From: Candidatus Poribacteria bacterium | GTDB taxonomy: Bacteria; Poribacteria; WGA-4E; WGA-3G | DNA: 64,000 nt | Assembly (NCBI GenBank): GCA_012270795.1 | Contig: JAAXHO010000197.1 | Span: forward strand, 41,813 to 105,812 | Direction: 5' to 3' | Shown here: positions 6,547 through 45,320 of the stretch, one piece after another | Layout of the letters: each line of letters starts with the position of its first letter | Numbering within the stretch: position 1 is the first letter of the stretch | Program-made: the position numbers and the translations under genes | Notes under the pieces: generated by a model | What the model was told of the DNA's origin: nothing | Database searches by the model: none | Seen by the model: the letters and a program-made list of their open reading frames with translations, nothing else

Positions 6547-7014
6547 TCACGGCGGAGTCAACCCTAAAAACTGGTACGGATCAAGACCTGCTTCCTTCAT
6601 TTCAACGATCTTTATATCTCTCGGAACATCAAACATAAACAATTCTCTATCTACCCCGCGTTCAAATCTTGCTTTTTTCTTAGTTCTGACTCGCATACAA
6701 TCATCCGGATGCCCCAACATACCAGATATCCGTATTCTACCGAACACATAGAATACCCGTTCAATAATTTCCGGTTCGTCATCCCATTCAATATAAATCA
6801 TACCTTTGATGATCGGATACATCTTGCCATCATCGCCTCCCCACGTCCAACCTTTGACTTCATACCCTTTTTTGAATAGTTCAATCTCAAGGCGTAGTAG
6901 GAGTTCTCTGTCTAACTTGAGCGGCCACACTTCAACTGCCCGGAAACCTTCCGGGATTTCAGGATAGGGACCGAAACCGTGTGGCGAAACAGGCACATTT
7001 GCATCCTTTTTCAC
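6547..7014 (-). CDS. Hypothetical protein, member of an uncharacterised 'GFGPYPEIPE' family (paralog at 38470-39237)
   Basis: It shares SPHGFGPYPEIPEGF, YPIIKGMIYIEWDD and GLDPYQFLGL blocks with the 38470-39237 product. The GTG start overlaps (GTGA) the stop of an upstream 43-aa TM peptide ORF (7012-7143). Confidence 0.6.
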   Translation of the reverse strand: MKKDANVPVSPHGFGPYPEIPEGFRAVEVWPLKLDRELLLRLEIELFKKGYEVKGWTWGGDDGKMYPIIKGMIYIEWDDEPEIIERVFYVFGRIRISGMLGHPDDCMRVRTKKKARFERGVDRELFMFDVPRDIKIVEMKEAGLDPYQFLGLTPP

Positions 7015-7369: not shown

Positions 7370-8746
7370 TTATGCATCTGGACGAGAAATATCATATTTG
7401 TTCATTTTTTTATAGAGGTTGCTTCTCTCAACTTCCAACACTTCTGCAGTTCTTCGGATATTCCAATCATTCTCTTTCAAAGCAGCAAGAATACACTCCG
7501 CTTCAGCAGAATCAACCATAGTGCTCAACGGTGTGTTAGACTGATATGTGGGTGCAGCATCCGCTATTTGTGCTGCATCTTTGTCAAGTGGTAAAACTTC
7601 AGCAACGTCGGTTGGTAAGATGATCTCTCTATTTACCATAATCAGCAGGCGTTCAACAATGTTTTTTAGTTCTCGGATGTTGCCAGGCCATTGGTAAGAT
7701 TGGAAAGTGGGGTATGCTTCTGAGGCAAAAGTTTTCGGTGCAGAAGCCATATTCATTTGCAGCTGCTCTGCAAAGCATTTTACCAATATTGGGATATCCT
7801 CTATACGTTCACGCAGAGGTGGCACGTCAATAGGTACAATTTTGAGGCGATAATATAGGTCGTTTCGGAACTGTCCCCGCTCAATTTCTGCTGGTAGGTT
7901 TTTATTTGTTGCTGCGATTATGCGGACATCAACATTGCGTATCTGCTGACTTCCGAGTCTCTCTACCTCGCCATATTCCAGCACGCGCAAAACTTTTGCC
8001 TGTGCCTTTAGGCTCATATCCCCAATTTCATCAAGGAAGAGCGTGCCACCGTCTGCCAGTTCAAACCGTCCCTGCCGCATAGAATCTGCCCCTGTAAATG
8101 CGCCGCGTTCATGTCCAAAAAGTTCGCTTTCGACGAGTTCTTCAGGTAATGCTGCACAGTTCAACGGGATAAAGGGTTTATCTGCCCGTTTGCTATACTG
8201 ATGAATTGCATTTGCTACCAGTTGCTTTCCAGTGCCGTTCTCACCAGAAATCAACACACCGAGATTGCTTGTTGCGACCTGACGGATTTCTGCTCGGAGT
8301 TTGTTCACAACGGGGCTCTTACCGATCATTTCATCTTCAATGCCAATTTGTGATTTCAGGATCTCATTTTCTTTGGCTAACCGCGAGAGTTCCAAAAACG
8401 GTTCTATATTGGATAGGATTTTGTCCATACTCACCGGTTTCGTTACATATCGCTTCGCGCCGAGTTCCATCGTTTTTGCGGCGATTTCGATATCCTGTTG
8501 TGCGGACATCATCACCACATGCAGCATGGGATGTCGTACCAGCATTTTCTGCAACGTCTCAACCCCATCCATACCATTCTCCATCATAATATCCAACAGC
8601 ACGAGGTCAATGTCACGAGATGCACAAAGTTGCAACGCCTTTTCTCCACTCGCTGCAGTCAAGGTTTCATAACCTTTGAGACTTAATCCTTGGGAAAGCA
8701 TTTTTAGTATATTTTTTTCGTCATCTACAATGAGGATCGTATTCAT
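7370..8746 (-). CDS. Sigma-54-dependent response regulator (NtrC family: receiver + AAA+ + Fis-type HTH)
   Basis: Receiver-domain start MNTILIVDDE, Walker A GENGTGKQLVA, GAFTGA motif (ERGAFTGA), and a C-terminal HTH. Confidence 0.9.
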   Translation of the reverse strand: MNTILIVDDEKNILKMLSQGLSLKGYETLTAASGEKALQLCASRDIDLVLLDIMMENGMDGVETLQKMLVRHPMLHVVMMSAQQDIEIAAKTMELGAKRYVTKPVSMDKILSNIEPFLELSRLAKENEILKSQIGIEDEMIGKSPVVNKLRAEIRQVATSNLGVLISGENGTGKQLVANAIHQYSKRADKPFIPLNCAALPEELVESELFGHERGAFTGADSMRQGRFELADGGTLFLDEIGDMSLKAQAKVLRVLEYGEVERLGSQQIRNVDVRIIAATNKNLPAEIERGQFRNDLYYRLKIVPIDVPPLRERIEDIPILVKCFAEQLQMNMASAPKTFASEAYPTFQSYQWPGNIRELKNIVERLLIMVNREIILPTDVAEVLPLDKDAAQIADAAPTYQSNTPLSTMVDSAEAECILAALKENDWNIRRTAEVLEVERSNLYKKMNKYDISRPDA

Positions 8747-8803
8747 ATTTTTTGCCTCTATATTGGAAAAGTCATTTTTTATTTACTCACGCCGCTCAAG
8801 TTT

Positions 8804-10759
8804 CTATTCCTGCGGTGTTGATTTTGTCACCAGTGGTATCAGCGCAGGTTGTGTATCATTAAGGTATGAAATTTCATCAAAAGTAATACATATTTTTGTT
8901 CCAACTTTCAGTTCCGATTCTACCACTATTTCTCCGCCGTGAACGGTAATAATTCGACGGACAATTGCCATGCCGAGTCCAGTACCATAAGGCTTTGTAG
9001 TGTAGTCCGGGGTAAAAAGGTTCTTCTGTGTCTCTTCAGACATGCCGTGTCCAGTATCTTGAACTTCCAAAGAGATATACCTACCCTTATTAGATATGGT
9101 GTTGCTCTGATTTTGTTCGTCAGTATTGCTACTCACGTTTTTGTCAGATATTGGTGTCGCATAAGTCCGCAAGGTAAGTGTCCCTCCATCTGGCATAGCC
9201 TCAATTGCGTTCTTCACAATGTTGCCGACTGAGCGTTCCATCTGTTCACGATCTAAAGAAAGATGTGGCAAGTCACCTAACTGTTTTTCAACAGTTATCT
9301 TTTGCGTCTGCGATAATTTTATGTATAACTTTAAAACGACTTCTACGATATCATTCAGATTCACTGGCTGTCGGTCAGGAACGGGTAATCTTGCATATTG
9401 ATGGAACTCATCTATTAGTCCACGTATACGGTCGACTTCTTCAATAATTGTATCCGTGCATTCTTGAAATATACTATCAAAGACTTCGGTTTTATCTTTT
9501 GCAGCTTGCAAATTCTCAACAGACAGTCGTATCGGAAAGAGTGGGTTTTTGACTTCATGCGCGAGTTGCCGTGCGACATCCCGCCACACAGCGATCCTTT
9601 CCGCTGTTCTATGTTCCTCCAAACTTCGCATTAATGCCTGCGCCATTTTATTAAATCCCTCTGCAAGTTCACCGACCTCTCCCTTAGATCGAACGTCAAG
9701 TTGATACGTAAGATTACCTGCACCGATCTCACTCACACCTTTCTGAAGTTGTGCGATTGGTCGTGTGATGCGTCTACTGACAAGGTAACTGCTGATGTAT
9801 ACAAGGAAAGCACCAGCACCGACACTCAACAGAATAATCATCCGCATGCGATCTTGCCAGAGAATGCGATCATCATGAGAATAGGCAATAATCAACTCTA
9901 CAAAAGGTAGTTGTTTTCTTTCAAAAAAAGGAGTGCTCAGAATGTCTGTGCGAACAACTGTGTAAGTGGGACTGTGGCGGTCCTTCTCTGGTACTTCTGT
10001 AGATGGTTGTTGTGGAATATCCTCTAAAGAGACGACCAAATCCTCAACGGGTTTTCCAGCTGCCGTATAAACTGTCATCTGCTGTTCCCATTTATCTTTT
10101 AACTCTAATCTATTCCCGGCGATATTGTTCAAGGGTATCCATTCCTCCTGTTCGTCCTTTTTTCGCACGAGAAAAATTGGATGTTCCGCGGGTTGGCTCA
10201 GCGATTCGCCTTCTAACCATTTTTGTAACGATCTTCCCCCTGTAACAAAACCCCAATCCCACCACTGTGTCACTTCAACGACCAACTGTGGTTCCTCACC
10301 TAAATTGATTACCCGTTCGCGAATAGTGCCTTTTCCCTGCTTGAACGTTTCATCTGTTTCGGCATGTGCGATCTCATGAATTTTGTACCCGATGTGTTTT
10401 TCATCAATCCGATTGCTGAGTACCAAAATTCCCTCATCATTACCGCATTCAAAGACATCAAAATCTGTTGTGGGAATATCCCGGATCCCCCCTCGTTCAG
10501 CTGTTCGCATCGCATTGAATACACCACGGTCTTCACCTGTTGTTTGTACCTGGTTGCGAATAGATTCTACGAAGAGCCTGTACAAATTGGAAATTGTTGT
10601 TTTTCTTTCTTCGACATCTTTGTCCAATTGCTCACTAAAAGTACGGTCTATGAGAAGACTCGCAATCCCAAAGATAATTGCAAACATGATCAGGAACACA
10701 AAACCGTAGGTAAAGAAAATCTTGTTTTGGAGCCGAAGCGAGGATAACCAGTAGAACAT
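8804..10759 (-). CDS. Sensor histidine kinase (two TM segments with a periplasmic domain, HisKA, HATPase_c)
   Basis: H-box HEVKNPLFPI and G-boxes DTGHGMS...GTGLGMAIV. It lies immediately upstream of the NtrC-type regulator on the same strand. Confidence 0.85.
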   Translation of the reverse strand: MFYWLSSLRLQNKIFFTYGFVFLIMFAIIFGIASLLIDRTFSEQLDKDVEERKTTISNLYRLFVESIRNQVQTTGEDRGVFNAMRTAERGGIRDIPTTDFDVFECGNDEGILVLSNRIDEKHIGYKIHEIAHAETDETFKQGKGTIRERVINLGEEPQLVVEVTQWWDWGFVTGGRSLQKWLEGESLSQPAEHPIFLVRKKDEQEEWIPLNNIAGNRLELKDKWEQQMTVYTAAGKPVEDLVVSLEDIPQQPSTEVPEKDRHSPTYTVVRTDILSTPFFERKQLPFVELIIAYSHDDRILWQDRMRMIILLSVGAGAFLVYISSYLVSRRITRPIAQLQKGVSEIGAGNLTYQLDVRSKGEVGELAEGFNKMAQALMRSLEEHRTAERIAVWRDVARQLAHEVKNPLFPIRLSVENLQAAKDKTEVFDSIFQECTDTIIEEVDRIRGLIDEFHQYARLPVPDRQPVNLNDIVEVVLKLYIKLSQTQKITVEKQLGDLPHLSLDREQMERSVGNIVKNAIEAMPDGGTLTLRTYATPISDKNVSSNTDEQNQSNTISNKGRYISLEVQDTGHGMSEETQKNLFTPDYTTKPYGTGLGMAIVRRIITVHGGEIVVESELKVGTKICITFDEISYLNDTQPALIPLVTKSTPQE

Positions 10760-33886: not shown

Positions 33887-34729
33887 ATGTCATTGTTTGA
33901 AGCGATTTTACTTGGTATTTTACAAGGTCTCACTGAATTTCTTCCCATTAGCAGTTCTGGGCACCTCGTCTTAGCGCAACAATTGCTCGGATTGAAAGAA
34001 ACTCTTTTATTTTTTGATGTGATGTTGCACGTTGGCACATTAGCTGCTGTGCTTGTTGCATATCGTCAGGCAATAGGAAGGTTAGTTGTTGGAGGGTTAT
34101 CATCGCTTGGGGAGATACGGTTCTATAAGAATCCGATGAGAGGTATCAACGAGTCGGTTGAACTCAGGTTTATTTGGTTAATACTGCTCGGTTCTATTCC
34201 GACTGGCATCATTGCTGTGCTGTTTAAGGAGCAGTTGGAGTCCTTCTTTGGTGAGGTAAAACTTGTTAGTATCATGCTCATTGTAACTGGTATCATCCTT
34301 CAATTGCCACGACTGAGAAAACAGGATGCCGATAGTCTTGGTACTGACCTAGATAAGATAAAATGGTGGCATGCGTCGCTTGTTGGTATTGCACAAGGTT
34401 GTGCTATTACACCGGGGATCTCGCGTTCTGGATCGACGATTTCCCTCGCGCTTTTTTTGGGTATTCCAGCTAAGACTGCAGCGGAATACTCTTTTCTTCT
34501 TTCAATTCCTGCGATTCTTGGGGCAGTCGTCCTCAAAATTAAAGACATTGGAGACACTGCTATACCTTTGTATATTTTAGCGGTTGGTATGTTTGCATCT
34601 TTTCTGGTTGGCTATATTGCTTTGCGTTTGCTGTTAGTGATGCTAAATCGTGGAAAATTCTCTGTGTTTACGTATTACTGTATTGCCTTAGGACTCGTGG
34701 CATTCCTTGTTTCCCTAAACATCAGATAG
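33887..34729 (+). CDS. uppP: Undecaprenyl-diphosphatase (UppP/BacA)
   Basis: The N-terminal motif ILQGLTEFLPISSSGHL and 8-TM topology are present. Confidence 0.9.
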   Translation: MSLFEAILLGILQGLTEFLPISSSGHLVLAQQLLGLKETLLFFDVMLHVGTLAAVLVAYRQAIGRLVVGGLSSLGEIRFYKNPMRGINESVELRFIWLILLGSIPTGIIAVLFKEQLESFFGEVKLVSIMLIVTGIILQLPRLRKQDADSLGTDLDKIKWWHASLVGIAQGCAITPGISRSGSTISLALFLGIPAKTAAEYSFLLSIPAILGAVVLKIKDIGDTAIPLYILAVGMFASFLVGYIALRLLLVMLNRGKFSVFTYYCIALGLVAFLVSLNIR

Positions 34730-36397: not shown

Positions 36398-37897
36398 CTA
36401 CCAACGGGTATAGAGTAGCACCTCTGAGATGATGAGTTGAAGGACAAGCAAACCTGCAACCCAGAAAAAATCACGTTTGGAACGCGTTGTGAGGTATTTT
36501 GCAACGGGAATGACAAAAAACGGCACCATGAAAATCCAGATACGTTCCACCTCCATCGTGAACCAAGTTGAGAATGTGAAATAGAGTAGCGTTATTAGGA
36601 AACCGATGATAAAAGTATCCGACTTGTCATGACGTAATATCCAAGGTGTGCGGGTTGTTGCCTGTTCTGATGCTGGGACTGTTGTGTTTTGTTTCCATTC
36701 CTTGAATGTTTTTACAAGTTGACGCAGCCAGACAGTTGTTATTGGAATACCTACCCCCATCAAGAATGCAAAGAGATTCGCTATACTCAAATAAAAATAG
36801 AGATCAAGTCTATGGTAACCTGTTCCTCCCATACCCTGTTCATCTCTTTTAATAGATGCCCAAAGTGCTTCAAAGGGTTGGAAACCTGTGAGTATGAACA
36901 ATAGCACGTAGAATCCAACGAATCCGATAGAAGCATATAACAACATCTTTAGGTATTGCTTAAACCGGTATCTCTCTAATAATGCAATAACGCACAGAAA
37001 GACCCCAATTACCACCGTTGAATAGGTCATAAACATCCCGAGTGCAAGCGAAAGGCCTGTTAGGAGACTATAAGGACGAAATTTTGTCAATGCGGTTTCT
37101 GGATCAATTTCCTTGTGTCTTGCTTCGTAAAACAGGTAGAGACTGAGAATTGGAAACACGCTAAAAGGTCCGTCCATAGATGTCGTTGTAAACATGACAA
37201 AGTTTGGTGTGACAAGGAATAGCAGCAATGCGCAAAGCGCGACCTTCTGATCGTATAGACGTTCCGCGAGTTTATAGATAGGGACGATGACGAGTGTGGT
37301 GAAAAGAACTGATGCCAACGATGCGGATATAAGATTGTAACCAAATACTTTGCTGACAATCCATAGGAAGACAACACCTCCTGGCGGATGGGTGCGTGTA
37401 TGTCCAGTTAGCGTATCAAACAGATAAGGTTTGCTAAAATCACGCAAAAATGTACGGAGACCGATTTCCTCTAAACGGGGTACATCCTCGTAGTATTCCA
37501 ATCCTGATCGTGTGTAAGGATAGAAAAGTGTCAAAATCTGTTCATTTTCTATTTCGCGGAAACCATCAATTTGCGCGACGCTGATATTGATAGCAATGAA
37601 GCACACAAACGCAATCAATATCAACTTGCGGTAACTGATGTTGTTTGAATGGATATATCTATAGCAAAGAAAGAGGAAACCTATGCATATAACAAGGGCG
37701 GGAAGAATCCACAAACTCAGATTGACTTCAGGTATGGCATAGTATGGGACGAAGTCTCTGCGGTGCTTTACTGCCCCCAGCGAGAGACTTGCTTCGCGCA
37801 TAATGATTACCATTATCTTGTGGTATAACAAGAAAAACAGCGCGACTATAAAAACTTGCCCAATTATAGATCTGATTGCTTTTTGAAAGTATTGCAT
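36398..37897 (-). CDS. Polytopic membrane protein, putative GT-C family glycosyltransferase (PMT_2/ArnT-like)
   Basis: About 12 predicted TM segments. The first periplasmic loop carries DVPRLEEIGLRTF...THPPGGVVF, resembling the acidic loop and 'EKPPL'-type motif of GT39/GT83 enzymes. Confidence 0.5.
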   Translation of the reverse strand: MQYFQKAIRSIIGQVFIVALFFLLYHKIMVIIMREASLSLGAVKHRRDFVPYYAIPEVNLSLWILPALVICIGFLFLCYRYIHSNNISYRKLILIAFVCFIAINISVAQIDGFREIENEQILTLFYPYTRSGLEYYEDVPRLEEIGLRTFLRDFSKPYLFDTLTGHTRTHPPGGVVFLWIVSKVFGYNLISASLASVLFTTLVIVPIYKLAERLYDQKVALCALLLFLVTPNFVMFTTTSMDGPFSVFPILSLYLFYEARHKEIDPETALTKFRPYSLLTGLSLALGMFMTYSTVVIGVFLCVIALLERYRFKQYLKMLLYASIGFVGFYVLLFILTGFQPFEALWASIKRDEQGMGGTGYHRLDLYFYLSIANLFAFLMGVGIPITTVWLRQLVKTFKEWKQNTTVPASEQATTRTPWILRHDKSDTFIIGFLITLLYFTFSTWFTMEVERIWIFMVPFFVIPVAKYLTTRSKRDFFWVAGLLVLQLIISEVLLYTRW

Positions 37898-38027
37898 TAA
37901 CTTACGTCTATTGTAATTCCGGTCCTATATCCTTGACACAACGAAACCCAAAATCATATTAAGTATACATAGATTAAGTCAAAATCTCAAGGAAATTTTA
38001 GATATCAGACAAATTTTTTGAAAAAAG

Positions 38028-38062
38028 TTTGACACTCATAAAAATTTGTGATATAATACTTC
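38028..38062 (+). promoter_or_regulatory. Near-consensus sigma70 promoter (TTGACA-17 nt-TATAAT)
   Basis: ttgacactcataaaaatttgtgatataat. The nearest downstream plus-strand gene begins ~400 nt away at 38470. Only tiny ORFs (17 and 31 codons) lie in between. Confidence 0.5.
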
Positions 38063-38469
38063 AAGGAATGATGTAGATTGATAATGAAATCTGCGTCACC
38101 GTTTTTATACTGTTTTTCATACTTGGGGAGAAGATGAAATTGCTAACCAAAAAGAAACACACCCGTTATTTATCTGATCCAGAATTTTGTAAGTGCAATA
38201 CAGTCGCTCATTTTATTAACTATAGGTTAGTCCATACCCCCCCCGTTTGTTAATATTTCTAATTTGCTTTTACAGAAATTCGTGTTTGCAATATTTTCGT
38301 ACCCGCACTTTTCGTCGCGGGTTATTGTTGTTGCATTGAATAACATTCATCAATTACCCTACAAGATTTGATGCTGATATTGTGATGCAAGTTACTTCTT
38401 ATTCAATCCACTTATTATGGTCAGGATTGAAGACATGTTTAATTAGCATATTGATATAAGGATAAACAA

Positions 38470-39237
38470 ATGTATTGGGATGTTTTAGTTGATAAGTGGT
38501 TCATCCGGATTTTGATTTTTTGCATAATTTGTTCCATTGGAATTTTACTCTGGCAACAAAATGATATGGCAAAATTCAATAAAAAGATGGAAGCACATGA
38601 CGCATTCATTGCAAAATTAGAAAATGAAAAAAATGATACTAAGCAAATAACAGATCGAACTATCACAACTGGAGAAATAGAACATGACGAATGGAATGAA
38701 AATGAAGAATCAACATTCGTCAATGTGGATGTTGAAAAAGTACCCGACTTTGCGACAAAAATGATACAAGACGATGATACAACAGATACATCTTCGTTTA
38801 AAGTATCGACCCCTCAGGTAAGTGTTTCTCCTTACGGGTTTGGTCCCTATCCTGAGATCCCAGAGGACTATCCCGGATACCCATTTAACAATATGTCTGC
38901 AAACCATGAACTAATTGCACGTGTTAAAATAAAGTTGTGGAAACAAGGTATACGGAGTAGTGGTGGCATAATAAGAAACGGATTGGTCTATCCCATTATT
39001 CCTGGGAAGGTATATGTTGAATGGAAGGAGTTTACAAAACCAGATGGTACGGTGGTCAAAACCCCAACTCGAATTCTTGGGGACCCTGACGATTTACCAC
39101 GTAGTAACGAAAGTCTACTAGAAGAGGTAATACGGGAAATGAAAGGGATACCAAAAGTGATAGATCTTCCTTCTCACTTAGAAATTTTAAGCTTTGATGA
39201 GGGGATTGACCCGTATGACTTTTTAGATTTACAATAA
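38470..39237 (+). CDS. Hypothetical membrane-anchored protein of the 'GFGPYPEIPE' family (paralog of 6547-7014)
   Basis: An N-terminal TM anchor, then SPYGFGPYPEIPEDYPGY, YPIIPGKVYVEWKE and GIDPYDFLDL blocks shared with the 6547-7014 product. Confidence 0.6.
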   Translation: MYWDVLVDKWFIRILIFCIICSIGILLWQQNDMAKFNKKMEAHDAFIAKLENEKNDTKQITDRTITTGEIEHDEWNENEESTFVNVDVEKVPDFATKMIQDDDTTDTSSFKVSTPQVSVSPYGFGPYPEIPEDYPGYPFNNMSANHELIARVKIKLWKQGIRSSGGIIRNGLVYPIIPGKVYVEWKEFTKPDGTVVKTPTRILGDPDDLPRSNESLLEEVIREMKGIPKVIDLPSHLEILSFDEGIDPYDFLDLQ

Positions 39238-39250
39238 AGGAGATATTCAA

Positions 39251-40147
39251 ATGAAAAAATTAACCATTTTTCTAAATATTGCCCTAATCTTTGGTTTTAC
39301 CACAGTTGTATTTTCACTACGAGGACCAGAAAATAATCGGGCAAGCAACCGAGACACACATTCAAAAGCGACATTATTTTTTGCTGATCAAAATGGAAAT
39401 CTGGTTGTTGATCAACAAGGAAACACTATACCGTTTGCTGTCCATTATAATGGTGAGGATAGCGATCAGGTTTTATACTCTGGAAGTACAGTTATATCGC
39501 TTATGAATTTCAATGCCCCGAACTTTCATATTAATCTGGGTGTTATTTTAAAAGCAAGAAGCCAAGTTACTTGTACTACTCGAAACATTAACTGCGAAGG
39601 TAGGTTCGCTACCCAGGCAGGACTTTATCATAGTTGGGTAGACGATGACGATCAAGAAGAGTGGGAAAAAGGGGTAGATTACAATGGTCGTGTTGGGGAG
39701 AATGTAACTGAGGATAATAATGATGAAAATGATGGTTTGGCCTTGGCTAAGGTTGATACTAACAATGTAAAGTTTGATCTGTCAGCAGTAGAGAGTTGTG
39801 ATGCTCACAGTTGGATCTATGGTTGGGAACCTTTTCCTTTACCGGGAGCCGTGATAGCTTCCAATGATCCTCCTTCACCTTCTAATCCTAATGAAGGAAC
39901 CGTTTCTGGCAGTTGTGCTTCTGGCAGTTGTGCTTCTGGGGGAGGCAATATTGCAAACGCAGGAGATGAGCCAAACGGAAACAATGTCCAAAACATTGCC
40001 CAAAATGTCCAAAATGTCAATGAACCATCTCATGCTGCTCGATCATATGCCCCTATTAATAGAGAAAAAAATAAACCTGATGTTGATCTTAACCTGCCGA
40101 TTACTCCAGCTTTGCTGGATATTGTTTTTGAATCTCTTGCTGAATAA
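39251..40147 (+). CDS. Secreted hypothetical protein with low-complexity GSCASGSCASGGG and Asn/Asp-rich regions
   Basis: Signal peptide MKKLTIFLNIALIFGFTTVVFS. No recognisable domain. Confidence 0.5.
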   Translation: MKKLTIFLNIALIFGFTTVVFSLRGPENNRASNRDTHSKATLFFADQNGNLVVDQQGNTIPFAVHYNGEDSDQVLYSGSTVISLMNFNAPNFHINLGVILKARSQVTCTTRNINCEGRFATQAGLYHSWVDDDDQEEWEKGVDYNGRVGENVTEDNNDENDGLALAKVDTNNVKFDLSAVESCDAHSWIYGWEPFPLPGAVIASNDPPSPSNPNEGTVSGSCASGSCASGGGNIANAGDEPNGNNVQNIAQNVQNVNEPSHAARSYAPINREKNKPDVDLNLPITPALLDIVFESLAE

Positions 40148-40381
40148 AGTTGGTTATACCAACTCTAAGATATTATGGTTCATTCTTGAGGGAGAATTTG
40201 TAGGAGCGACTTTGAATCAACACCAAATGCGCTTTTGGTAATTGGCAGTTCGGGACTAAGAAGGTTGTACATACAGTGGTGTCTTCCAATTATATTCGAC
40301 ACAACAAAATTTCAGTAATGGAATTTTGTTTTTTAGAATTGGTATTTCTACAACATTGCTTAAGATTGTGTATAAACCCTA

Positions 40382-41371
40382 ATGAAAAAGAGTTTTACTA
40401 TATATCTTACCATTGGTGCCCTCTTTTACTGCATCATACTACTGACTTTCTGGATACGGATTCAGGGTGTACATAGACTACCCGCAGGGCAGTTTACTGA
40501 AAACGATGCCTATCTTTATCACTGGCACGCAAACATTATAGCGAAACACGGCGTGTTGCCTGCAAAGGATATGCACCGTTGGTTACCTAATGGAAGAGAT
40601 AACGGGTTACTTCTTTCGCTCTATTCCTACGCTATCGCTTACATACATAAAGCGGTGGCGTGGGCATTTCCAAAACTCACAATTAATCACATCCAACTTT
40701 ACCTCCCCGTATTCTGTTTTACCTTAGGACTTGGTGTGCTGTTTGTCTTTCTCACTCGCGTTCACGGACTGCTCTTTGCAACTGTCGTAGGTGTGCTATT
40801 GGCAACGCTACCCGGCAGCATTGAACGCAGTGCTGCAGGTTTTGGCGACAGAGACGCATGGTGCTGGATGTTCGGCATACTTGCTGTTATCAGTTACCTA
40901 TGGAAAGAGGTTATGCAGCCAGGTCGACGCAGGTTTGTTGCAACAATCCTTTCTGGATTCATCGTTTTTTTGGGTGGACTTTCCTGGGAAGCATTCGGAC
41001 TCTTTGTGCTGATAATACTCTGTATTGAGATATGGAAATTCTGTACCAACGAAACTGAACAGCACTTAAAAGAGTATCTAATATGGATACTCATGTTTGT
41101 TCCATTGCTCTACCTTTTAGCTCCCGCTTATCGTCGCGGTTACAGTTACTGGACGCACCTCGCTGTCTTAGTGCTCTTGCCACCCCTTGTGGTTTTCACA
41201 ATACGCGGAGCAAGGTATCTACTGCTTACTTATGTTGAGTTTCTGCAACCACATGCTCGAAAACTTGCATGGGGACTTACACTCGGTGCCATTGTATTAG
41301 GTATCGGTTATTTTTTTCCCAATCCAGCACGTTTGAAACAACCGTCTTCGCGCTTAAAGAGAGTCGACTGA
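40382..41371 (+). CDS. STT3/AglB/PglB-like oligosaccharyltransferase, N-terminal membrane half
   Basis: TM1 is followed by ENDAYLYHWHANII...LPAKDMHRWLPNGRD, which resembles the first external-loop motif of STT3/AglB. A DxD-like GFGDRD follows, with ~8 TM segments. The stop overlaps the next start (TGATG). Confidence 0.5.
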   Translation: MKKSFTIYLTIGALFYCIILLTFWIRIQGVHRLPAGQFTENDAYLYHWHANIIAKHGVLPAKDMHRWLPNGRDNGLLLSLYSYAIAYIHKAVAWAFPKLTINHIQLYLPVFCFTLGLGVLFVFLTRVHGLLFATVVGVLLATLPGSIERSAAGFGDRDAWCWMFGILAVISYLWKEVMQPGRRRFVATILSGFIVFLGGLSWEAFGLFVLIILCIEIWKFCTNETEQHLKEYLIWILMFVPLLYLLAPAYRRGYSYWTHLAVLVLLPPLVVFTIRGARYLLLTYVEFLQPHARKLAWGLTLGAIVLGIGYFFPNPARLKQPSSRLKRVD

Positions 41372-42774
41372 TGAAAGACATGACAGAACTCGTTGATCCA
41401 CATTATGGATATTGGACAGGGAGATATGGAACTGTTTTTATCTTAGGTAGCTTCGGTTTGATAATCACAAGTCTCCATCTTTGGAAACGGAATGGATTAC
41501 CTCTTGCTCTCGCGCTTTCTTTATTTTCCGCAACAACCTTTTTCCGATGGCAAATCAGCGGATGGATAGGAGAAAATACGTGCAACACGCTGTTTTTGAT
41601 TTCATTCGGATTCGCCGTTGGCTGTTTTGCCATTGCATCATTCCGAAAAGATACAGAGAAAAGTGAATTGGTAACGCTTGCTATACTTGCTTGGTTTCTC
41701 TTATGGGTAGCACTCTCGCGGGGAGGAAAACGCTATGACTTTTTTATTGGTCTTCCACTTGCTTACGGCACTGCATGGATCCTCTCTGTTTCACCTGGCT
41801 ACATCTTACAAAAACTTAAAAATGCAAAAATTCTGTATCCCCATGTTAACGAACAATGGGTTACGATTTGCTTTGCAATTATTGTGTTAATTCCAGTTTT
41901 CTTTTGGAATCCTCTCGGTGGTCATGCAAATCGGGCAATTGCAGCTGCAGCAACCTGGCGCAACCCTACCCCTGGTGAAGGAACACCACTTAGCAAAACT
42001 TATGAATGGATGAAAAATACACTACCGCAAGACACTGTGGTCGCTGCAAACTGGAGTTACGGAAGCCAACTTAATGTTTTCGGAGGAGTCAAAACTATTA
42101 CAGATCAGGACACTTTCCTCCCACATTGGATTCATCTCTATTATAGACACGTCTACTGCGCGCAATCTGAGCGCGAAGCATTAGAATTTCTTAAAACTCA
42201 CGGTGTAACACACCTCATGCTCAGAGAATGGGGAATAGTAAATCGTGCATATACCTATTCTTATATCGGCAGTGATGAAAAAGGCGATAAGAGATTCGGG
42301 TTCACACCTCTTGTTAAGGACAGGAACAAACAGCTCACAAGTCCAAAAAATATTCGATTTCGTTTTCAATATATAAGTACAGTGGGAATAGAGGTTAAAA
42401 ACCCGCCTGATCCCTACTTAAATGCGCGTCTAAAAACAGGAGCTGTCGCACGACTTCCTTATGTAATGTTCAAAGGTACTAAACGCCATGTTCCTCAATT
42501 ACCTAGCTATAGAAACCCACACGGTGGTGTAATTCTCTATTACGATCAAAATGGAACTTTGGAAAAAGCATATCATATTTCCAGTCGTGGTTGGAAATGT
42601 CTTGCTGTGCAGCTCTATTTTCTCGGTGAGATGTCTGATACGTTTGTTCCTGTCTACCCCGAAGAAGAAAATAATACAACCTCTGTCAAAGTTTGGAAAA
42701 TTAACTATCCATCTGATATAGAAGCAAATCCTAAATATCTTGTGACAGAACCCGAAACCTCTCATGAAAAATGA
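41371..42774 (+). CDS. STT3/AglB/PglB-like oligosaccharyltransferase, C-terminal half (TM segments + periplasmic domain) with divergent motifs
   Basis: About 6 TM segments, then a soluble domain. SVSP lies in a loop (compare SVSE/TIxE), and ANWSYGSQL lies where WWDYG is expected. The gene is translationally coupled to the previous ORF. Confidence 0.5.
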   Translation: MKDMTELVDPHYGYWTGRYGTVFILGSFGLIITSLHLWKRNGLPLALALSLFSATTFFRWQISGWIGENTCNTLFLISFGFAVGCFAIASFRKDTEKSELVTLAILAWFLLWVALSRGGKRYDFFIGLPLAYGTAWILSVSPGYILQKLKNAKILYPHVNEQWVTICFAIIVLIPVFFWNPLGGHANRAIAAAATWRNPTPGEGTPLSKTYEWMKNTLPQDTVVAANWSYGSQLNVFGGVKTITDQDTFLPHWIHLYYRHVYCAQSEREALEFLKTHGVTHLMLREWGIVNRAYTYSYIGSDEKGDKRFGFTPLVKDRNKQLTSPKNIRFRFQYISTVGIEVKNPPDPYLNARLKTGAVARLPYVMFKGTKRHVPQLPSYRNPHGGVILYYDQNGTLEKAYHISSRGWKCLAVQLYFLGEMSDTFVPVYPEEENNTTSVKVWKINYPSDIEANPKYLVTEPETSHEK

Positions 42775-43525
42775 AACCATTGAAGTCTCTATCGTCATGC
42801 CGTGTCTCAACGAAGAAGAAACACTTGGCATATGTATTGAAAAGGCACAATCCACCCTCAAATCTTTAGGGTATTCAGGTGAAGTTGTCATCGCTGATAA
42901 CGGTTCCATTGATAACTCCGTTGAAATTGCCAAACGTCTCGGTGCACGCGTTGTGCATCAACAGACACGAGGTTACGGTGCAGCTTATCTTGCTGGTTTT
43001 GCTGCTGCACAGGGGCAATACATCATCATGGGAGACTCCGATGATACATACGACTTCACAGATTTAGAACGATTCATAACACCCCTTCAAAATGGATATA
43101 ACCTCGTTATCGGCAATCGGTTTAAAGGTAAGATTTTACCGGGTGCTATGCCGTGGGCAAGACGTTATATCGGCAACCCAATACTTTCTGGAATGCTGCG
43201 CTTGTTATTTGGTACATATATATCAGATTCACACTGCGGGATGCGATCATTTACTACCGATGCATACAAACGGATGGACTTAAAAACAACAGGCATGGAA
43301 TTCGCCTCTGAAATGGTTATCAAAGCAGTCCAGTCTGAGTTGAAAATACTTGAAATTCCAATCACCTATCACCCCCGTGGCGGCGAGTCAAAACTTAATG
43401 CGATTCGGGACGCATGGCGACATATCCTGTTTATGATAAAATATAAACTCTCCAACCAGACAACACATGATAAAAAATCAGCAACTTCCACAGATCCCAA
43501 AAAAAACAATGGATCGCTTCCTTGA
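42764..43525 (+). CDS. Family 2 glycosyltransferase (polyprenyl-phosphate sugar synthase, DPM1/GtrB-like)
   Basis: VSIVMPCLNEE...ADNGSIDNS...GDSDDTY (DxD) and the overall GT2 pattern are present. Its start overlaps the previous stop. Confidence 0.8.
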   Translation: MKNETIEVSIVMPCLNEEETLGICIEKAQSTLKSLGYSGEVVIADNGSIDNSVEIAKRLGARVVHQQTRGYGAAYLAGFAAAQGQYIIMGDSDDTYDFTDLERFITPLQNGYNLVIGNRFKGKILPGAMPWARRYIGNPILSGMLRLLFGTYISDSHCGMRSFTTDAYKRMDLKTTGMEFASEMVIKAVQSELKILEIPITYHPRGGESKLNAIRDAWRHILFMIKYKLSNQTTHDKKSATSTDPKKNNGSLP

Positions 43526-44045
43526 ATACCTACGGTTTACCAAAGCGAAAAAACACATTCCAAAAGGAGCATATCTCTTAGATGTTGGGACAGGAGATGG
43601 ATCGTTTTTACGTTTTCTCAACGGACACATTTTATCAGGGGTTGGTATAGACCCACTTATCACAACTACCATACATTCTAAGGATTGGACGCTTCAACCA
43701 GGCACTTTCCCTCAGGATTTTCACACTGAAGGACGTTTTGATGTCATAACTCTCCTCGCTGTCGTTGAACATATTCCCGATGACGAACTGCATCAGGTAG
43801 TGGACACCTGCTGGAATCACTTAAAACCTGGGGGACGCGTTATTATCACCGTACCCCATCCGTTTGTAGATAAGATCTTAGATGTTTTGAAGTTTTTGAA
43901 AATTATTAAGGGACTTTCTCTTGAGGAACATCACGGATTCAATCCTGAAGTCTTGCCAGATGTCTTTTGTCGGTGGAAATTGATTAAAAAAGAACGTTGG
44001 GAACTCGGATGTAATTACTTATTCATATTTGAAACAGATCTTTAA
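43509..44045 (+). CDS. Class I SAM-dependent methyltransferase
   Basis: Motif I LDVGTGDGSF, motif II region VGIDPL, and VITLLAVVEHIPDDEL. Start chosen at MDRFLEY. Confidence 0.65.
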   Translation: MDRFLEYLRFTKAKKHIPKGAYLLDVGTGDGSFLRFLNGHILSGVGIDPLITTTIHSKDWTLQPGTFPQDFHTEGRFDVITLLAVVEHIPDDELHQVVDTCWNHLKPGGRVIITVPHPFVDKILDVLKFLKIIKGLSLEEHHGFNPEVLPDVFCRWKLIKKERWELGCNYLFIFETDL

Positions 44046-44207: not shown

Positions 44208-45320
44208 TCACATTTCAGATGCTTGCAAATCCTGTGCAGCTTCTAATAACGCATTCGCCAAAAACTCTGGATTTACTTCGTCTTTACCCCGGAAGGTGCG
44301 CACCCGTTCACCGTTGACTTTTAGGACAGCCAGTTCTTTGCCGCCGAGATGGATACCGAGTTTTGCGTTGCGTGTTTCACCTGGACCGTTGACTTCACAT
44401 CCCATCACTGCTATATCCATGTTTATACCGTGTTTATCTAAAAGTGTTTCTGCGGCAGCGACGATGTTTTCATAATTTGCCTCAGGGTCACCACGTCCAC
44501 AGAAGGGACAAGAGATGACATTTAATATATTTTCTGCCATACCGAGTGCCCGCAGCAGTTCCTTTGCAGTCAGGACCTCTTCAACGGGGTCGCCTGTGAT
44601 AGAGATGCGGAGGGTGTCTCCGATTCCATCTAACAAGAGTGTGCCGATGCCGAGGGTGGACTTGACATGTGCGCGGCGCGGTGTGCCTGCTTCGGTTACG
44701 CCGAGGTGTAAGGGATAACGCACTTTCTCGGAAAGTAATCTGTTCGCCTTTATCATACGTAGTGGGTCGCTGGATTTGACGGAGATTGCGATGTCGGTAA
44801 AATCGTGTTCTTCACAGATTTTGACATGCCGCATGGCACTTTCTACTAATGCTTCTGCTGTGGGTGAGGGGTATTTATCTAATAGGTCTTTTTCAAGTGA
44901 ACCTTCGTTGACACCAATACGAATGGGGATATTTGCGGCTTTCGCAGCGGACAACACTTGTGCAATCCGTTCTTCGTTGCCGATGTTCCCCGGATTGATG
45001 CGAACCTTTGCGACACCTGCATCTACTGCATCCAGCGCGAATCTGTAGTTGAAGTGGATGTCGGCAACAATTGGGACAGGTGAGCGTTTCACGATTTGAC
45101 TAAGTGCTTTTGCGTCCTTTTCATCTGGTACAGCCACTCGTACGATTTGTGCACCTGCTTCTGTACACCGTTCAACTTGTGCTAATGTAGCGTCAATGTC
45201 GTGCGTTAGAGTAGTAGTCATCGTCTGGATGGAAATAGGATTTCCACCACCAATTGGCACGTTTCCTACATGTATGGTTCGGGTAGGTTTCCGATTATTT
45301 ATTTGAATAAGTTCTTTCAT
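44208..45320 (-). CDS. ispG: 4-hydroxy-3-methylbut-2-en-1-yl diphosphate synthase (flavodoxin)
   Basis: The IspG/GcpE pattern includes the C-terminal Fe-S Cys motif CPFCGR...C. Confidence 0.9.
   Translation of the reverse strand: MKELIQINNRKPTRTIHVGNVPIGGGNPISIQTMTTTLTHDIDATLAQVERCTEAGAQIVRVAVPDEKDAKALSQIVKRSPVPIVADIHFNYRFALDAVDAGVAKVRINPGNIGNEERIAQVLSAAKAANIPIRIGVNEGSLEKDLLDKYPSPTAEALVESAMRHVKICEEHDFTDIAISVKSSDPLRMIKANRLLSEKVRYPLHLGVTEAGTPRRAHVKSTLGIGTLLLDGIGDTLRISITGDPVEEVLTAKELLRALGMAENILNVISCPFCGRGDPEANYENIVAAAETLLDKHGINMDIAVMGCEVNGPGETRNAKLGIHLGGKELAVLKVNGERVRTFRGKDEVNPEFLANALLEAAQDLQASEM

Follow-up and report, generated by a model that had tools for sequence, protein, structure and literature searches.

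Characterised bacterial N-oligosaccharyltransferases (OSTs) are, in the literature that we found, confined to PglB of Campylobacterota and Desulfobacterota. In Haloferax, AglJ places the first hexose on dolichol phosphate, AglP serves as the pathway methyltransferase and AglB transfers the glycan to Asn (PMC3871713). Here, we describe a bacterial gene of the same glycosyltransferase family, GT66 (STT3/AglB/PglB), located in a 64,000-nucleotide stretch of DNA from a Candidatus Poribacteria bacterium (contig JAAXHO010000197.1, positions 41,813 to 105,812), which was analysed as a whole and is referred to below as the window. Alignment with homologues shows that positions 40382-42774 of the window constitute a single gene for a protein of about 797 amino acids (aa), interrupted by a one-base indel into open reading frames (ORFs) of 329 and 467 aa. 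Profile matches, the predicted fold and three of the four motifs examined in its sequence identify the joined protein as a genuine member of GT66. Literature searches for Poribacteria together with oligosaccharyltransferase or N-glycosylation, and for WWDYG variants in bacteria, returned nothing relevant, and no paper on STT3 homologues in Poribacteria was found.

The initial annotation of this locus had presented the two ORFs as translationally coupled genes for a split OST. The ORFs themselves, the motifs quoted from them, their overlap and the neighbouring genes were all confirmed by a sequence check and Pfam. ORF1 (40382-41371, 329 aa) contains NDAYLYHWHANII...LPAKDMHRWLPNGRD (the stretch on the side of external loop 1, EL1, is also given as TENDAYLYHWHANII...LPAKDMHRWLPNGRD) and GFGDRD; ORF2 (P0020, 467 aa), which gene callers begin at the ATG at 41371 and which ends at 42774, contains SVSP and ANWSYGSQL; and the TGA stop of ORF1 overlaps the ATG at 41371 (TGATG). 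The frame of ORF2 is -1 relative to that of ORF1 and is open already from 41239. When the two frames are joined at the T7 run at 41311-41317, frame 0 (...GIGYFF) passes into the -1 frame (SQSSTFETTVFALKESRLMKDMTELVDP...) to give a protein of 797 aa with the junction peptide ...GIGYFFSQSSTFETT...; the tail of the truncated ORF1 reads PNPARLKQPSSR. A search of 5.8 billion proteins returned at least 100 homologues that are single ORFs of 784-830 aa and cover 97-100% of the joined sequence. The closest among those listed share 77-80% identity with it, measure 794-800 aa and are fused, the named ones being from Candidatus Poribacteria, and none of the listed full-length homologues has the two-ORF arrangement, all being single ORFs of about 800 aa.

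Residues 1-312 align with these single-ORF homologues, the 17-residue tail of ORF1 has no counterpart in them, and the 18 residues that the -1 frame encodes ahead of the ORF2 ATG (SQSSTFETTVFALKESRL) are conserved there, with F318, T321 and E327 among them. DNA comparison with three related loci (L003-L005) places the missing base within the T run: where the window has TAT TTT TTT CC CAA, L004 reads TAT TTT CTT TCC CAA, so that a C-to-T change would have produced a T8 run from which one T was then lost to leave T7. The ATG at 41371 encodes the Met conserved in ...RLMKD..., and the overlapping TGA is the +1 reading of the conserved Leu-Met codons CTG ATG; since both come from these codons, the apparent translational coupling is incidental. 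The supposed split of the gene is therefore a frameshift.

The STT3/AglB/PglB affinity suspected at the outset was borne out when profile and fold comparisons were applied to the joined product, the resemblance far exceeding what chance would give. The Pfam STT3 profile (PF02516, gathering cutoff 24.5 bits) matches both ORF1 (35.7 bits, E=9.7e-9) and the joined protein (30.6 bits) above cutoff, many homologues bear a precomputed PF02516 match or an 'Stt3' tag in databases, and the best NCBIfam match of the joined protein is TIGR04154 (archaeo_STT3, the archaeosortase-A-associated OST; 52.1 bits, E=3.5e-14), which crosses the junction as a single stretch (residues 16-552). PDB searches by single sequence and by profile had the C-terminal domain of yeast Stt3 (2LGZ) as their sole match and did not retrieve a full-length OST; in that match, ANWSYGSQL...TITDQDTF lies on AWWDYGYQI...TLVDNNTW (E=0.004; E=0.002 in the profile search). 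The residue correspondences to canonical OSTs rest on bridging relatives and on the fold search. An AlphaFold (AF2) model of the joined protein, built from an alignment of 118 homologues, reached a predicted local distance difference test score (pLDDT) of 77.9 and a predicted TM-score (pTM) of 0.78, an earlier 20-sequence alignment having been unusable (pLDDT 51). The model shows a GT-C fold with multiple transmembrane (TM) helices and a C-terminal periplasmic/luminal domain of mixed alpha/beta structure. Its 19 best fold matches in the PDB are all catalytic subunits of N-oligosaccharyltransferases, namely human STT3A/B, A. fulgidus AglB, C. lari PglB and yeast Stt3 (E 1e-14 to 4e-10, TM-scores 0.47-0.66, full-length cover), with human STT3 as the best; the next match is the C-mannosyltransferase DPY19.

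Conservation of the catalytic motifs was measured over the 118 aligned sequences, and the EL1 and DxD motifs proposed in the initial annotation both proved sound. The EL1 Asp, D42 in TENDAYLY, is invariant and aligned with the D of LGTDAYRF and ALDPFVF in canonical relatives, and the DxD motif, GFGD156RD158AW, is invariant and aligned with GFADRDAL and GFSDKEAL. The EL5 equivalent of the TIxE/SVSE motif is MTELVDP, of which E336 and P340 are kept in at least 90% of the sequences and which is aligned with TVAESHQPY. Because the canonical motifs of the distant relatives fall in the same alignment columns, these correspondences are fixed, and SVSP, which had been put forward for this role, is not the TIxE/SVSE equivalent. 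R149 and R389 are invariant or nearly so. The alignment shows the predicted metal-binding and catalytic acidic residues (D42, D156xD158 and E336) to be conserved, and this putative catalytic machinery would point to an active enzyme working on an amide or similar nucleophile.

Solved OSTs use the Asp of WWDYG to bind the Ser/Thr at sequon position +2. The window copy has NWSYG at the position aligned with WWDYG of yeast Stt3, so that the reported divergence of this motif, with Ser in place of Asp, stands. The family consensus there is AANW-x-(Y/H)-G, with x being D (28), G (26), S (26), N (7) or P (2); the first Trp is replaced by Asn (rarely His) across the family, only the second Trp and the Gly are invariant, and about a quarter of the paralogues keep NWDYG. 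The lack of constraint at the Asp position argues against a canonical reading of the +2 Ser/Thr, and, judging from these alignments, the acceptor rule, or even the acceptor class, of the Poribacteria enzymes probably differs from that of canonical OSTs.

A scan of one genome per GTDB species yielded 183 relatives, of which the best 80 are all in Candidatus Poribacteria; the neighbourhood counts given below refer to 80 related loci. Poribacteria genomes carry several STT3-like copies, up to four or five, and a second copy was sought across the 64-kb window but not found. Disrupted paralogues occur at seven other Poribacteria loci of the 80 (L036, L046, L047, L054, L073, L074 and L081, gene around 8001-10400), with an insertion of about 1.7 kb inside the gene in L054 and frame changes in the others; about one in 10 copies is affected, and some of these may be long-read assembly errors. 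Birth-and-death turnover seems to be normal for the STT3-like family of Poribacteria.

When 1.84 billion cluster representatives were searched exhaustively with a profile, 955 relatives were found (E up to 0.001). Among these, the full-length ones at greater distance have canonical WWDYG, GFADRDAL or GFSDKEAL, and TVAESHQPY motifs, and two such canonical relatives lie on bacterial-type contigs (3.0 and 6.96 Mb), beside GtrB-like GT2 glycosyltransferases and putative flippases. The 3.0-Mb contig (L084 4139-20260, ENA ctg853937_32x_l) holds three STT3-Pfam paralogues (923, 846 and 903 aa) within 16 kb, interleaved with GT2+GT2_TM_C and LPG_synthase_TM genes and with a sigma-54 activator nearby; the one paralogue examined has a canonical WWDYG. 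The 6.96-Mb contig (L082 8001-14790, ENA ctg246115_111x_l), which also carries ccm genes, encodes an STT3 homologue of 903 aa in which WWDYG is canonical; after it come a GtrB-like GT2 (GT2_TM_C), a further GT2 and a flippase of the Wzx type. This locus has the look of a full bacterial OST cluster that falls outside the groups known so far.

The genes around the joined gene (Table 1) were likewise compared across the related loci. The GT2, the start of which overlaps the STT3-like stop by 11 nucleotides, has AglJ (TIGR04182) as its best NCBIfam match (155.4 bits, E=2e-45, profile positions 1-216 of 293), and further matches are a haloarchaeal dolichyl-phosphate (Dol-P) hexose transferase, the P. 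furiosus Dol-P-mannose (Dol-P-Man) synthase (PDB 5MLZ, E=6e-17) and then ArnC. These matches assign it to the polyprenyl-phosphate sugar synthase type, in agreement with the DPM1-like function first suggested for it, and it consists of the soluble catalytic domain only, with no C-terminal TM segment. Its relatives (64-89% identical) are found in about 20 of the 80 loci, mostly directly downstream of the STT3-like gene, with 15 scored as adjacent. The methyltransferase, which follows the GT2 as had been annotated, has a relative in 20 of the 80 and is linked mainly to NWSYG-type paralogues. The GT2 and/or the methyltransferase adjoin 13 of 16 NWSYG-type paralogues, the subgroup of the window copy, versus one of 28 of the NWGYG type, and this NWSYG/GT2-linked copy seems to hold the place of core paralogue in the family. 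The PMT/ArnT-like GT-C glycosyltransferase is indeed present, but does not belong to a conserved module: no PMT_2 GT-C was found near the STT3-like gene in any of the 80 loci, and its PDB sequence search gave no match. The 298-aa secreted protein is poorly conserved, with a relative in one of the 80 loci, and both were rejected as members of the module. In 13 of the 80 loci, including the closest orthologous ones (L003-L005), a relative of the GFGPYPEIPE protein is encoded no more than 8 kb from an STT3-like gene; this raw count, in a multi-copy family, is suggestive, and the protein may be associated with the module.

Table 1. Features of the glycosyltransferase locus and of its surroundings (positions in the window)
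Feature	Position	Strand	Remarks
Undecaprenyl-diphosphatase UppP/BacA	33887-34729	+	Pfam E=3e-78
Membrane-anchored charged coiled-coil/Pro-rich protein, 415 aa	34959-36206	-	No family match
GT-C glycosyltransferase PMT_2 (ArnT/PMT-like)	36398-37897	-	Pfam PMT_2 E=2e-16
GFGPYPEIPE-family protein, 255 aa, membrane-anchored	38470-39237	+	No Pfam or NCBIfam match
Secreted low-complexity protein, 298 aa	39251-40147	+	No family match (Pfam, NCBIfam)
5' part of the STT3-like (GT66) gene, residues 1-312	40382-41317	+	N-terminal TM helices, EL1 with D42, GFGD156RD158 motif
T7 homopolymer, site of the one-base loss (-1 frame change) parting ORF1 and ORF2	41311-41317	+	Sequence tat ttt ttt ccc
Out-of-frame tail of ORF1, PNPARLKQPSSRLKRVD, then stop	41318-41371	+	No counterpart in any homologue
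3' part of the STT3-like gene, -1 frame	41317-42774	+	EL5 loop with MTE336LVDP, more TM helices, periplasmic C-terminal domain (ANWSYGSQL, TITDQD); fold matches full length
GT2 glycosyltransferase, polyprenyl-phosphate sugar synthase type (AglJ/DPM1/ArnC-like)	42764-43525	+	Pfam GT2 E=7e-29
S-adenosylmethionine (SAM)-dependent class I methyltransferase	43467-44045	+	Pfam Methyltransf_23 E=1e-15
IspG/GcpE	44208-45320	-	
WD40-repeat protein, 1040 aa	47037-50159	-	Cohesin/dockerin-like segments
Second copy of the GFGPYPEIPE-family C-terminal domain	6559-6996	-	36% identical

Several further proteins recur around the paralogues. The UppP and IspG genes flank the cluster in the window and are housekeeping genes of polyprenol supply that are probably linked to it by coincidence, as neither occurs near STT3-like paralogues at other loci. 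WD40 proteins are common neighbours of STT3-like paralogues in other Poribacteria (24 loci), and a protein of about 459 aa, similar in composition to the 415-aa coiled-coil/Pro-rich protein, lies upstream of STT3-like paralogues in 12 loci (e.g. L060-L066). A secreted protein of about 199 aa is encoded near STT3-like paralogues in 21 loci (L032 10369, L055 10352, L035 6842 and 18 more), in several of them immediately downstream, and a Cys-rich secreted protein of about 146 aa in 15 loci; both are possible dedicated acceptors.

Taking gene and neighbourhood together, we consider it probable that the joined gene encodes a GT66 enzyme of a multi-paralogue Poribacteria family with an NW[D/G/S/N]YG motif, and that this NWSYG-type, GT2- and methyltransferase-linked member would transfer a polyprenyl-linked sugar to a periplasmic acceptor. 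By analogy with the Haloferax pathway and with bacterial three-component systems, which operate along similar lines, the GT2 would load a hexose from a nucleotide sugar onto polyprenyl phosphate at the cytoplasmic face, the methyltransferase may modify the sugar, like AglP in Haloferax, and a flippase encoded elsewhere would flip the lipid-linked sugar. The intact STT3-like enzyme would then transfer the sugar, with inversion and with the help of a divalent cation, to an acceptor at the periplasmic face, most likely a protein side chain (Asn) recognised in a manner unlike the canonical N-X-S/T sequon. Of the protein-glycosylation-like locus originally proposed, the GT66, GT2 and methyltransferase components stand, whereas a flippase, an initiating transferase and enzymes building a lipid-linked oligosaccharide (LLO) are not encoded there, so that 'protein N-glycosylation locus' is a label that we infer.

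Several observations weigh against this reading. With 52.1 bits, the joined protein falls short of the curated TIGR04154 cutoff of 450 bits, being homologous to archaeo_STT3 but not a member, and the GT2, at 155.4 bits against the 325-bit cutoff of TIGR04182 and with the C-terminal part absent, is not an AglJ equivalog. The WWDYG motif is not intact, and the freedom of its Asp position across the family speaks against recognition of the sequon in the canonical way; the DK/MI motif was not located in the C-terminal domain, where a conserved GSDExxD(R/K)xF (residues 630-639) is an unconfirmed candidate. The flippase, the initiating phosphoglycosyltransferase and further glycan-building enzymes are absent from the locus, no flippase gene being found in the part of the window between 36 and 46 kb, where intergenic gaps measure just 162-572 nucleotides. 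The activity, donor and acceptor of the Poribacteria STT3-like family are predictions from sequence and model. Finally, the 4-5 NCBI/ENA contigs that carry the same two ORFs may stem from the same reads, so that the sequence is compatible with both mutation and assembly error.

The break in this copy would, from the alignments, be either a new inactivating mutation or an assembly error. That the frameshift arose through assembly or sequencing error at the homopolymer, the organism having an intact 797-aa ORF with T8 and all else being as proposed above, is a possibility that we hold tentatively: the break sits exactly in the T7 run, apart from it the two halves are intact and show the same degree of conservation as functional homologues, the orthologues are all intact and the copy belongs to the type that seems to be the core paralogue, but a run of seven T is short to have caused a consensus error in a short-read assembly, and the seven other disrupted loci among the 80 indicate that real decay happens in the family. 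The window sequence is identical to an ENA scaffold (L001), and the record of the same 329-aa and 467-aa ORFs on 4-5 NCBI/ENA contigs favours a real mutation, with a shared assembly error possible. Of 271 highly conserved columns, 11 have a deviating residue in the window copy, compared with a median of eight in intact homologues, 34% of which deviate at least as much; with no further decay in this copy, the break would be recent or artefactual. It is highly improbable, by contrast, that the products of ORF1 and ORF2 are the two subunits of a translationally coupled OST, synthesised separately and brought together in the membrane. The TGATG overlap and the ORF2 start chosen by gene callers suggested such an arrangement, and the break, falling where the flexible EL5 loop begins (residues 314-341, of low confidence in the model), is one that the protein might tolerate, yet no homologue is split at this point, the ORF1 tail is unconserved, the 18 residues missing from both products include the invariant or near-invariant F318, T321 and E327, and the stop/start overlap, formed from conserved Leu-Met codons, represents no adaptation. 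We would be equally surprised if the full-length protein were restored on U UUU UUU, whether by programmed -1 ribosomal frameshifting or by slippage of transcription. Read in the frame of ORF1, t ttt ttt does fit the X XXY YYZ pattern of a slippery heptamer perfectly in formal terms, and a -1 slip yields exactly the conserved protein. A search for a stimulatory RNA structure downstream found none, however (the region folds less stably than shuffled controls, z=+1.7), the relatives are in frame and have no slippery run, so that nothing of it is conserved, and T7 is shorter than the runs known for efficient transcriptional slippage.

A more substantial alternative, which we take seriously while thinking it somewhat improbable, concerns function: the GT66 scaffold might have been re-purposed to transfer a single sugar from polyprenyl monophosphate to another side chain, an envelope glycan or a lipid, as in a three-component system of the Gtr/Arn type. 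The D/G/S/N/P variation at the WWDYG Asp and the replacement of the first Trp by Asn would fit such a change, as would the sole conserved partner glycosyltransferase being a polyprenyl-monophosphate sugar synthase type, the absence of oligosaccharide-assembly genes from the locus and the next-best fold match to DPY19, a GT-C enzyme that uses Dol-P-Man on a non-Asn acceptor. However, the OST residues for amide activation and metal binding are all conserved, the OST-typical C-terminal domain is retained and about a quarter of the paralogues keep NWDYG. A monophosphate carrier is likewise used by euryarchaeal AglB (PMC3871713), which counts against this alternative. Returning to the polyprenyl-linked transfer favoured above, we advance as a speculative extension that the Poribacteria contain a lineage-specific radiation of AglB-like GT66 enzymes with NW[D/G/S/N]YG motifs, the core copy of which, with an AglJ-like synthase and a methyltransferase, would form a new bacterial protein-glycosylation system derived from an archaeal-type module. 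Such a system, in this phylum of sponge symbionts, would transfer a monosaccharide or short glycan from a monophosphate carrier under non-canonical acceptor rules, with paralogues serving different targets.

For annotation, both ORFs belong in one entry for a frameshifted STT3-family gene rather than in two for hypothetical proteins. The family is moderately interesting in its own right, as a bacterial GT66 radiation with intact catalytic residues and an unconstrained WWDYG Asp, a motif unlike that of every studied enzyme of its kind. If active, it would show how the acceptor specificity of OSTs can evolve and could provide glycoengineering with enzymes of novel site preference; it may also be relevant to the surface biology of sponge symbionts.

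Among the known systems, the three-component arrangements (GtrA/GtrB/Gtr-GT-C, ArnC/ArnEF/ArnT and Ppm1/PMT) resemble the locus in having a polyprenyl-phosphate GT2 beside a GT-C transferase, that is, two of the three parts of a synthase (GtrB-type), flippase and GT-C system. ArnC and Dol-P-Man synthase are the closest solved relatives of the GT2, and the bacterial contigs with STT3, GT2_TM_C and a putative flippase show a like arrangement. Here, however, the GT-C enzyme is of GT66 (OST type) rather than GT83 or GT39, the flippase gene is absent from the locus and the GT2 has no C-terminal TM segment. The eukaryotic STT3 proteins (yeast Stt3 and human STT3A/B) share with the joined protein the Pfam STT3 domain and the C-terminal domain (WWDYG...DNNTWN versus ANWSYGSQL...TDQDTF), and the human enzyme is the top fold match; the Poribacteria enzyme differs in having no accessory subunits, a divergent motif and polyprenyl monophosphate as the likely donor carrier.

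Campylobacter PglB (PDB 3RCE, 5OGL and 6GXC) is, like the joined protein, a single-subunit bacterial GT66 enzyme of the same fold (E=3e-14) in which the DxD motif is present, and the NDAY of the joined protein resembles what we take to be the EL1 motif of PglB, NDGY. Nevertheless, the identity is about 13%, WWDYG is not conserved, an MI motif was not identified in the joined protein, the locus has no pgl cluster (PglC/A/J/H/I/K equivalents) and Poribacteria stand outside Campylobacterota and Desulfobacterota, the sole groups with PglB homologues in the literature found. From archaeal AglB and the Agl pathway, the locus is set apart by its bacterial host, by scores far below the cutoffs (52 versus 450 and 155 versus 325), by NWSYG instead of WWDYG, by the lack of a cluster of further Agl-type glycosyltransferases or of a flippase, by the several paralogues per Poribacteria genome and by the frameshift in the window copy. 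At the same time, the joined protein shares with A. fulgidus AglB-L (PDB 7E9S/3WAJ) the full-length GT66 fold (TM-scores 0.52-0.60, E 1e-12 to 2e-14) and the conserved EL1 Asp, DxD-type motif and TIxE-type Glu, and the module parallels the Agl pathway of Haloferax volcanii in combining a GT2 whose best match is AglJ with a methyltransferase, as AglP.

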